The notes under the pieces were generated by a model. The model was not told the DNA's origin. It made no database searches and worked only from the letters and a program-made list of their open reading frames with translations. The position numbers and the translations under genes were made by a program. Below, in pieces: positions 2,237 through 3,008 of a stretch of DNA of 22,032 nt (its first letter is position 1; every line of letters starts with the position of its first letter). This DNA comes from Escherichia coli (GTDB lineage: Bacteria; Pseudomonadota; Gammaproteobacteria; Enterobacterales; Enterobacteriaceae), in assembly GCF_003334255.1 (NCBI RefSeq), contig NZ_QOWU01000068.1; one strand, given 5' to 3'.

Positions 2237-2390
2237 GTGCTGATGTCACTGGATAAACCAGTCGTCAGCGGTTTCCCAGGCTTCCGAGTCGGCAAAACTA
2301 GTTGACGTCTAATACCAGAGCCTGTAACTGTTTTTCGTCCATAAATTAACCTTCATTTGATGCTGGATTGAACATATCAAAATCAGGCAA

Positions 2391-2741
2391 TTACACAAAT
2401 CTATGTACAGGCTCTATTTCCGGAAGTCCGTATTTTGCCCGTGCGCGGCTACATGCTTCATTCGCGATGTCATTTTCGCCGGACATTGCGAATTCCCTGC
2501 ATGTGGACGGACGGTTTTTGTAAACAGAGCAATATGCGTTTTCACCCGGAGTTCCCGCCAGAGCGACACATCGGGGCTTTTTCTGATTGGTGCCGCTCAT
2601 ACAGCGATGAAAAGGAGATATTTGCTCAGTGAGAGTGGCCGGGACGTTTCCGCCAGCATCATCGGCTTCAGCCCAGTAAAAAGAGACGCGGAAAAATACA
2701 CAACAGGCACCACACGTCATGCATGGATTGGGGTTATTCAT
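2391..2741 (-). CDS. YkgJ/UPF0153-family putative zinc/iron-chelating protein (CxxCxxCC)
   Basis: 116-aa ORF. N-terminal motif [11 protein letters not shown] plus further Cys (CMSGT, CVALAG, CSVY, CREF) is typical of the YkgJ-type Cys-rich domain. Overlapping plus-strand ORFs 2403-2756 and 2435-2632 have no motifs. Start-codon context is weak. Confidence 0.65.
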
Positions 2742-2837
2742 AATTCATCGGTATAGCGATAAATCGTAAAGAGAACAATGTACCTAGTGTGTATTGAGCT
2801 AAATATACCAATTAGTATACCAAGTGTATACTAAGAG

Positions 2838-2870
2838 CAAAAAAGAAAGGGGCTACCATTTGGTAACCCC
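2838..2870 (-). terminator. serT intrinsic terminator
   Basis: Directly 3' of the tRNA. Minus-strand RNA GGGGUUACC-loop-GGUAGCCCC (includes one U-G wobble) followed by UUUCUUUUUU (plus-strand A-tract 2838-2848). Confidence 0.7.
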
Positions 2871-2879
2871 TTGATTATT

Positions 2880-2967
2880 TGGCGGAAGCGCAGAGATTCG
2901 AACTCTGGAACCCTTTCGGGTCGCCGGTTTTCAAGACCGGTGCCTTCAACCGCTCGGCCACACTTCC
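2880..2967 (-). tRNA. serT: tRNA-Ser (anticodon UGA)
   Basis: Reverse complement reads GGAAGTGTGGCCGAGCGGTTGAAGGCACCGGTCTTGAAAACCGGCGACCCGAAAGGGTTCCAGAGTTCGAATCTCTGCGCTTCCGCCA: 88 nt, long variable arm, anticodon loop CUUGAAA, encoded CCA end. Matches E. coli serT from memory. Confidence 0.95.
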
Positions 2968-2979
2968 GGAATGACGCGC

Positions 2980-3008
2980 ACTATAAACATCCCGATGCGG
3001 CGTGTAAA
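2980..3008 (-). promoter_or_regulatory. serT sigma70 promoter (-35 TTTACA, 17-bp spacer, -10 TATAGT, GC-rich discriminator)
   Basis: On the minus strand: TTTACA (3003-3008), 17-nt spacer, TATAGT (2980-2985), then GCGCGTC before the mature tRNA 5' end at 2967. A GC-rich discriminator is typical of stringently controlled stable-RNA promoters. Confidence 0.55.

Follow-up and report, generated by a model that had tools for sequence, protein, structure and literature searches.

The arm-type sites of phage lambda integrase (Int) comprise a tandem set, P'1-P'2-P'3, together with P1 and P2, and are accompanied by the IHF sites H1, H2 and H'. The P'1-P'3 sites abut the 3' end of int. In KplE1/HK620, the arm-type sites of IntS at argW overlap the intS promoter, and the sites of TorI (RDF) have been mapped experimentally (PMC2951348). 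A paper on reintegration of the ST64B prophage reports in vitro recombination between attP and attB with the integrase IntA; the passages of that paper drawn on here describe no arm sites. The serT gene is a recognised prophage locus (PMC8767318, PMC10673567). Literature searches found no published characterisation of the serT attP, of the arm-type sites of ST64B or Sp4, or of the motif string described below, and found no binding or recombination experiment on the integrase considered here.

We analysed a cluster of short repeats beside serT in a 22,032-nucleotide stretch of Escherichia coli DNA (hereafter the window), the left 2.9 kb of which is the right end of a lambdoid prophage of ~50 kb inserted in serT. 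The repeats are very probably tandem arm-type sites of the prophage's lambda-family tyrosine integrase, in one arm of the attachment site, which in this integrated state forms the junction between prophage and chromosome beside serT. Computation directly showed the anatomy of the site, homology between the integrase and lambda Int, conservation of the arm, and motifs that are specific to each lineage and sit at fixed positions. The relevant features are:

2391 to 2741, minus strand: YkgJ-like cargo gene, a neighbour of the attachment site and not part of it
2802 to 2830, minus strand: promoter-like match (TATACA, a 17-bp spacer and TATATT, with TG), made of the repeats and directed toward the ykgJ-like gene
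2804 to 2811, plus strand: putative arm-type site 1, TATACCAA, the outermost element of the conserved attachment-site arm
2816 to 2823, plus strand: putative arm-type site 2, TATACCAA, inside the 12-mer AGTATACCAAGT, which is identical in the int-proximal arm
2827 to 2834, plus strand: putative arm-type site 3, TATACTAA, a C-to-T variant
2837 to 2873, minus strand: phage-borne copy of the serT intrinsic terminator (hairpin 2847 to 2872 and T-run), which replaces the native terminator upon integration
2864 to 2876, minus strand: IHF-consensus site AATCAAGGGGTTA, between the putative arm-type sites and the core; the sole exact match to WATCAANNNNTTR in the 22-kb window
2874 to 2939: 66-bp block identical at both prophage ends (positions 9365 to 9430 of locus L003, at the other end) and containing the crossover
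2880 to 2967, minus strand: serT, tRNA-Ser(UGA), its 3' part from the phage and its 5' part from the host
2929 to 2935, minus strand: serT anticodon loop (anticodon 2931 to 2933), the probable region of strand exchange (overlap), flanked by the anticodon stem as probable core-type sites

The repeated unit is 8 bp long, and the three plus-strand copies are spaced 12 and 11 bp apart from start to start. The sequence-only reading that first drew attention to them had reported TATACCA at 2804 and 2816 and TATACTA at 2827 with this spacing, between the hairpin terminator downstream of serT and the YkgJ-like gene. We confirmed the copies, all on the plus strand (2804-2810, 2816-2822 and 2827-2833), and their placement was correct. 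That reading had also assigned each copy a palindromic core; this holds for GTATAC but not for the ATATAC of the first repeat, which is not a palindrome. In aligned sequences, the C-to-T change in site 3 was confined to the lineage that carries ykgJ, and other E. coli and phage Evi have TATACCAA at this position. An overlapping copy, TATACTA(A), is present on the minus strand at 2813-2820, and repeats 2 and 3 form a 9-nt inverted repeat, TTAGTATAC/GTATACTAA. This symmetry appears to be incidental because it is absent from phage Chris1, which has the same motif. The palindromy of TTAGTATAC/GTATACTAA had suggested binding by a dimeric regulator, a possibility that we rejected given that Chris1 has the motif without the symmetry.

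The clustering of the repeats was far from what was expected by chance. There were five matches to TATACYA in the 22-kb window, compared to 2.55 expected, and four of the five were inside 30 bp. We also used a motif-agnostic test that looked for any 8-mer, with no more than one mismatch, in three copies that were 9-14 bp apart, with 100 first-order Markov simulations as the control. There was one such case in the window, the repeats described here, and the simulated mean was 0.02 per window. When the same motif was sought elsewhere, exact TATACYAA was found nowhere else in a 40.7-kb locus (L001), being confined to the repeat cluster. A scan of viral contigs with the pattern TATACCAA-N(3-6)-TATACCAA returned >120 loci. 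Most of these were unrelated coding sequence or simple repeats, indicating that the tandem TATACCAA motif alone is not diagnostic. The only informative loci from the scan were one with the same attP (L014) and three from serU phages (L013, L026 and L027). Tandem or inverted (G)TATACCAA repeats were also observed next to further tRNA genes and ahead of an integrase-like ORF that is unrelated (MARTTRPLT...) (viral contigs L019, L039, L096; L043; L011, L022, L023, L035, L047), and other recombination modules may have taken up the TATACCAA word too.

The junction between host and phage DNA is inside the tRNA gene. The window from 2300 to 3000 is 100% identical to E. coli strain JE86-ST05. The prophage sits between yccA and serT, with hyaA and the genes that follow it beyond serT. 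Its right end, to the left of serT, has tail genes, a YadA-like adhesin gene, a hypothetical gene and the YkgJ-like gene, and its far end, beside yccA, has genes for a tyrosine integrase and a DUF4224/excisionase protein. Rfam identified, above threshold, a tRNA and nothing more. [quoted passage not shown] The terminator at 2837-2873 differs from the native serT terminator by paired changes, and the same terminator sequence is present in the attP of the free phage Evi, which identifies it as phage DNA. Because the terminator is phage DNA and the 66 bp are common to both ends, the crossover is placed within the tRNA. The crossover point is probably the anticodon loop (2929-2935), judging from the general behaviour of tRNA-targeting tyrosine integrases. 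Since the phage supplies a copy of the terminator and of the 3' half of the tRNA, serT is predicted to stay intact and functional upon insertion.

These findings correct the boundary of the prophage: the "serT terminator" of lysogens is phage DNA, and the cargo genes start just outside repeat 1. The repeats are on the phage arm, to the left of the tRNA and 98-128 bp from the anticodon loop. We rejected the possibility that they are themselves the host-phage junction. The sequence-only reading had allowed that they might coincide with an insertion boundary in the serT 3' flank. The repeats are indeed absent from strains without the prophage, in which yccA is directly beside serT, but the junction is about 100-130 bp to the right of them, in the tRNA.

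The repeated motif is present in both arms of the attachment site, three times (TATACCAA) in one and once in the other, and is unrelated in sequence to the anticodon stem-loop of the core. The fourth copy, an exact TATACCAAG, is in the int-proximal arm (L003 9534-9542), at +110 relative to the anticodon loop and oriented like the other three (shuffle p = 0.0002). It lies within a second copy of the 12-mer AGTATACCAAGT and is 31 bp from the int stop codon. Relatives have an inverted copy at about +45, which was not found here; there was only a degenerate AACACCAAG at +66. The IHF-consensus site at 2864-2876 has a counterpart in the other arm (L003 9502-9514), one of two exact matches in the 40-kb L003, and each arm is thus predicted from sequence to have an accessory IHF site separating its arm-type sites from the core. 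A palindrome was also noticed between the stop codon of int and the arm site next to it, CCAGAAAATTTTCTGG in Evi (a perfect 16-mer, L004 2762-2777) and CCAGAAAATTTTCTGT here (L003 9545-9562). It may act as a terminator for int or as a hairpin for RNA processing.

The integrase resembles lambda Int over its full length. In a search of PDB sequences, the 339-aa protein aligned with lambda Int (1z1b; E = 1.4e-19; residues 1-318 versus 1-339), and the alignments with the lambda Int structures 1z1b, 5j0n and 1z1g (E about 1e-19) all began at residue 1. The alignment includes the motif of the arm-binding N-domain, MGRxR...LPP...NGY.Y, and the lambda N-domain alone (1kjk) aligned with residues 1-59 (E = 0.063). 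A Pfam scan of the integrase found no arm-binding-domain family; PF00589 was the only significant match, accompanied by weak hits. Judging from the PDB alignments, the integrase carries an N-terminal arm-binding domain in addition to its core-binding and catalytic domains.

Integrase homologues with 42-55% identity have the same site architecture, and each lineage has its own tandem motif. The motifs and their offsets from the anticodon loop are:

This window, serT: the three repeats, at -129/-117/-106
Chris1, serU: TATACCAAG, three copies, at -133/-120/-109
689R5, serU: TATTCCAAG, three copies, at -132/-119/-109
BUCT708, serT: TATTCTAAG, three copies, at -133/-120/-109
ST64B and Kp4882-3, serU (the Kp4882-3 locus ends before the tRNA): TTTTCTCA, three copies, at -132/-119/-109 (ST64B)
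ZF40, tRNA-Leu-like: ATATTAGGAA, two copies, at -159/-147
Fostie, tRNA-Leu-like: GTATTATGAA, two copies, at -159/-146

Most lineages also have copies of their own motif in the opposite arm, a direct copy at +105 to +110 and an inverted copy at +44 to +46 (shuffle p of 0.0002-0.012 for most); there was no clear direct copy at +105 to +110 in BUCT708 or Fostie. The motif changes with the integrase and the positions are kept, as observed for six motifs in about eight phages that represent few independent lineages. The motif groups track groups defined by the N-terminal beta-hairpin of the integrase: LPPRV..N.YSYVWKP is found with (T)AT(A/T)C(C/T)AAG, and MPKGVFFRPSGYYWKP is found with TTTTCTCA.

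The main alternative is that the repeats are sites for the 80-aa DUF4224/excisionase protein encoded beside int, which would form a head-to-tail filament that bends the arm during excision, like lambda Xis at X1-X1.5-X2. It is the main alternative because of geometry and co-inheritance: Xis sites classically come as three in one arm, arranged head to tail at intervals of about one helical turn, as established for lambda, and the excisionase gene is present and co-varies with int, so that lineage-specific motifs fit excisionase sites as well. Because the two genes are inherited together, covariation of motif and protein cannot by itself separate Int sites from excisionase sites. Nonetheless, we consider it improbable that the repeats are excisionase sites. 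Several lineages have the motif in the opposite arm too, at fixed positions, as expected for Int arm sites, and we know of no such recurrence for Xis sites. Also, the triple is the outermost element of its own arm, whereas Xis sites would be expected between an Int arm site and the core. Lastly, the triple adjoins the 3' end of int in relatives, like lambda P'1-P'3, and the motif groups track the hairpin in the N-domain of Int.

In some relatives the last int codons overlap the tandem arm sites: ...FYTK* in Chris1 (L129 1850-1862), ...KYSK* in 689R5 (L130 1820-1831) and ...KNSK* in BUCT708 (L006 2510-2524). In Chris1 and BUCT708 it is site 1 that is overlapped, and in 689R5 it is site 2. Because of this overlap, the same bases are predicted to encode the C-terminus of the integrase and a part of its own binding array. 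Relative to int, the E. coli serT phages (this prophage, L003 9431-9600, and Evi, L004 2640-2800) have the whole attP of ~350 bp flipped in place when compared with Chris1, 689R5, ST64B and BUCT708 (loci L129 1850-2110, L131 1730-2000 and L006 2505-2770). In this prophage and Evi, int lies beside the arm with a single site and runs in the same direction as the tRNA fragment. In the other four, it lies beside the arm with three sites and runs in the opposite direction to the tRNA fragment. Phage vB_SmeS_BUCT708 was deposited with a Stenotrophomonas host, and the tRNA part of its attP is identical to the 3' half of enterobacterial serT (L006 2585-2652). Its int and DUF4224 genes are also close to enterobacterial ones, and for these reasons its true integration host is worth checking.

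The arm that contains the repeats is conserved independently of the genes to its left. In the free phage Evi, the arm, the core and the other arm are contiguous as attP, with three copies of TATACCAA. Homology between Evi and the window begins at 2801, just outside site 1, and the left neighbour in Evi is an EspV remnant and not ykgJ. The 96-bp segment from 2790 to 2885 adjoins tRNA-Ser in 776 of 5426 complete E. coli genomes (about 14%), O157:H7 included, and the ykgJ-like arrangement was found in only 37 of the 5426. Among aligned examples there were at least four unrelated left flanks: the ykgJ-like gene, an EspV remnant, unannotated sequence, and a remnant with a DUF4376 domain from a tail-fibre region. 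All four converge 1-3 bp outside repeat 1. As judged from these alignments, the repeats mark the outer edge, starting at ~2801, of a conserved attachment-site arm.

A relic copy of attP was observed in phage PPompW_132418 and similar Stx2a phages (L007 2495-2700), in the effector region (espO, nleG, espM) and far from any int. The arm, core and other arm are contiguous in the PPompW_132418 relic, one of the three repeats is deleted, and the tRNA part is degenerated. The second place per genome at which the 96-bp arm segment occurs may be such a relic attP.

We also considered whether the repeats are a promoter or operator array for the ykgJ-like gene, acting through RNA polymerase and/or a dedicated regulator and unrelated to recombination. 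They are 60-95 bp upstream of the start codon and on the same strand, their reverse complement is an extended -10-like promoter match, and there is precedent for arm sites over a promoter at KplE1 intS (PMC2951348). However, the match (9/12) is no better than shuffled sequence yields: there were two sites in the region compared to 1.7 expected in shuffles, a difference that is not significant. In addition, there are no such repeats upstream of chromosomal ykgJ, with homology to the window fading just before 2801, and the repeats are found unchanged in phage Evi and where the flank is an EspV remnant, tail-fibre genes or other sequence. An array that serves only the ykgJ-like gene is therefore very unlikely indeed. 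A secondary promoter role, in addition to that of arm sites, is conceivable. One form of this is that the three-site arm doubles as a promoter occluded by the integrase, since its reverse complement resembles extended -10 elements (TGGTATATT and TGGTATACT) directed into the adjacent cargo gene. We regard this as a long shot. If true, occupancy by the integrase would gate expression of prophage cargo, the ykgJ-like gene here and genes of the EspV/TccP2 region in O157, and this would be a cargo-gene version of the autoregulation of KplE1 intS.

The YkgJ-like gene is a diverged paralogue of chromosomal ykgJ, with about 80% nucleotide identity, and its product had no match in PHROGs or NCBIfam. 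About 55 bp upstream of the gene (2742 to about 2797) are also ykgJ-derived and have an internal deletion. Just downstream of the gene, a perfect 10-bp inverted repeat, AGAGCCTGTA / TACAGGCTCT (2317-2326 and 2406-2415), flanks a segment of ~100 bp (2315-2421) that is 97-99% identical on E. coli plasmids, once beside an IS256-family transposase, and that may be a small mobile or hairpin element. Further to the left, the gene for the YadA-like trimeric autotransporter adhesin (10-1473; C-terminal anchor match, E = 1e-33) is in the cargo region of the prophage beside the tail-fibre genes.

We give almost no weight to the view that the repeats are replication-origin iterons, which are typically short, phased and directly repeated, or that an AT-rich heptamer clustered by chance in an intergenic stretch, because the DnaT-like and P-like replication genes (L003 16742-18233) are about 43 kb away along the prophage, the motif-agnostic expectation was 0.02 per window, and the array is conserved across genera with lineage-specific replacement of the motif at fixed offsets. 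The sequence-only reading had offered three functions for the repeats. The operator array failed, given the missing repeats at chromosomal ykgJ and the at least four different left neighbours, and so did the iterons, given the location at a prophage end far from the replication genes. The remaining one, recombinase arm-type or integration-related sites, is strongly supported by the prophage ends, the copies in both arms and the relatives.

If the repeats are arm-type sites, then by analogy to lambda Int each protomer of the integrase would bind one 8-bp TATACCAA site through its small N-terminal domain, and the C-terminal domains would engage and cleave the core, the serT anticodon stem-loop about 100-130 bp away. 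IHF bound at 2864-2876 would bend the arm, allowing the arm-bound integrase to reach the core. The further TATACCAA in the int-side arm and the second IHF site would complete an intasome that integrates into serT and, with the DUF4224 excisionase, excises. We infer from the comparisons above that Int binds these sites, where exactly the crossover occurs, and that some sites would serve integration and others excision. All of the features of lambda-type arm sites that were tested computationally were found at this locus, at the level of sequence. Arm sites beside serT are ordinary phage integration machinery, and are very cleanly documented here.

The results provide annotation for lambdoid prophages that insert in serT: the integrase arm sites, the IHF sites, the core and the true boundary, in an arm carried by about one in seven complete E. 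coli genomes. Furthermore, homologous integrases with a fixed geometry and six different arm motifs of 8-10 bp offer a ready-made series for studying DNA recognition by the lambda-type N-terminal domain. Three closely related motifs, TATACCAAG, TATTCCAAG and TATTCTAAG, differ at two positions only. The motif series could also be used for building orthogonal integrase/attP pairs.

The attachment site is most readily compared with that of lambda. Homology between the integrase and lambda Int extends over the full length of the protein and takes in the arm-binding domain at the N-terminus. One arm has three tandem sites with a spacing of about 11-12 bp and the other has a further copy, each arm has an IHF-consensus site that separates its arm sites from the core, and in relatives the triple abuts the 3' end of int, as do lambda P'1-P'3. 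There are also differences. The lambda arm consensus is, we presume, unrelated to TATACCAA. The triple is about 100-130 bp from the crossover, compared to about 50-90 bp in lambda, because the tRNA 3' half and the terminator copy are in between. Lambda inserts at an attB located between gal and bio, and the target here is the anticodon loop of a tRNA. This phage and Evi have the entire attP in inverted orientation with respect to int, and there are only 3 + 1 clear sites here.

The relatives at serU, serT and tRNA-Leu-like genes, namely ST64B (int, Sb28, with attP at serU), Chris1, 689R5, BUCT708, ZF40 and Fostie, share homologous integrases (42-55% identity) and the same geometry (-133/-120/-109, +45 inverted and +110 direct), and the gene beside int, where annotated, encodes a DUF4224 protein or excisionase. 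They differ in that each lineage has its own motif of 8-10 bp, the core is another tRNA in most, and their int abuts the triple arm, whereas here int abuts the single-site arm. KplE1/HK620 is similarly a tRNA-associated prophage junction in E. coli, in which the arm-type sites overlap a promoter, compared to a promoter-like match here; the gene regulated there is int itself, whereas the neighbour here is cargo. The X1-X1.5-X2 sites of lambda Xis likewise are three head-to-tail sites about one helical turn apart in one arm, but the motif here is also in the opposite arm at conserved positions, and the excisionase here belongs to another family (DUF4224; PHROG excisionase).
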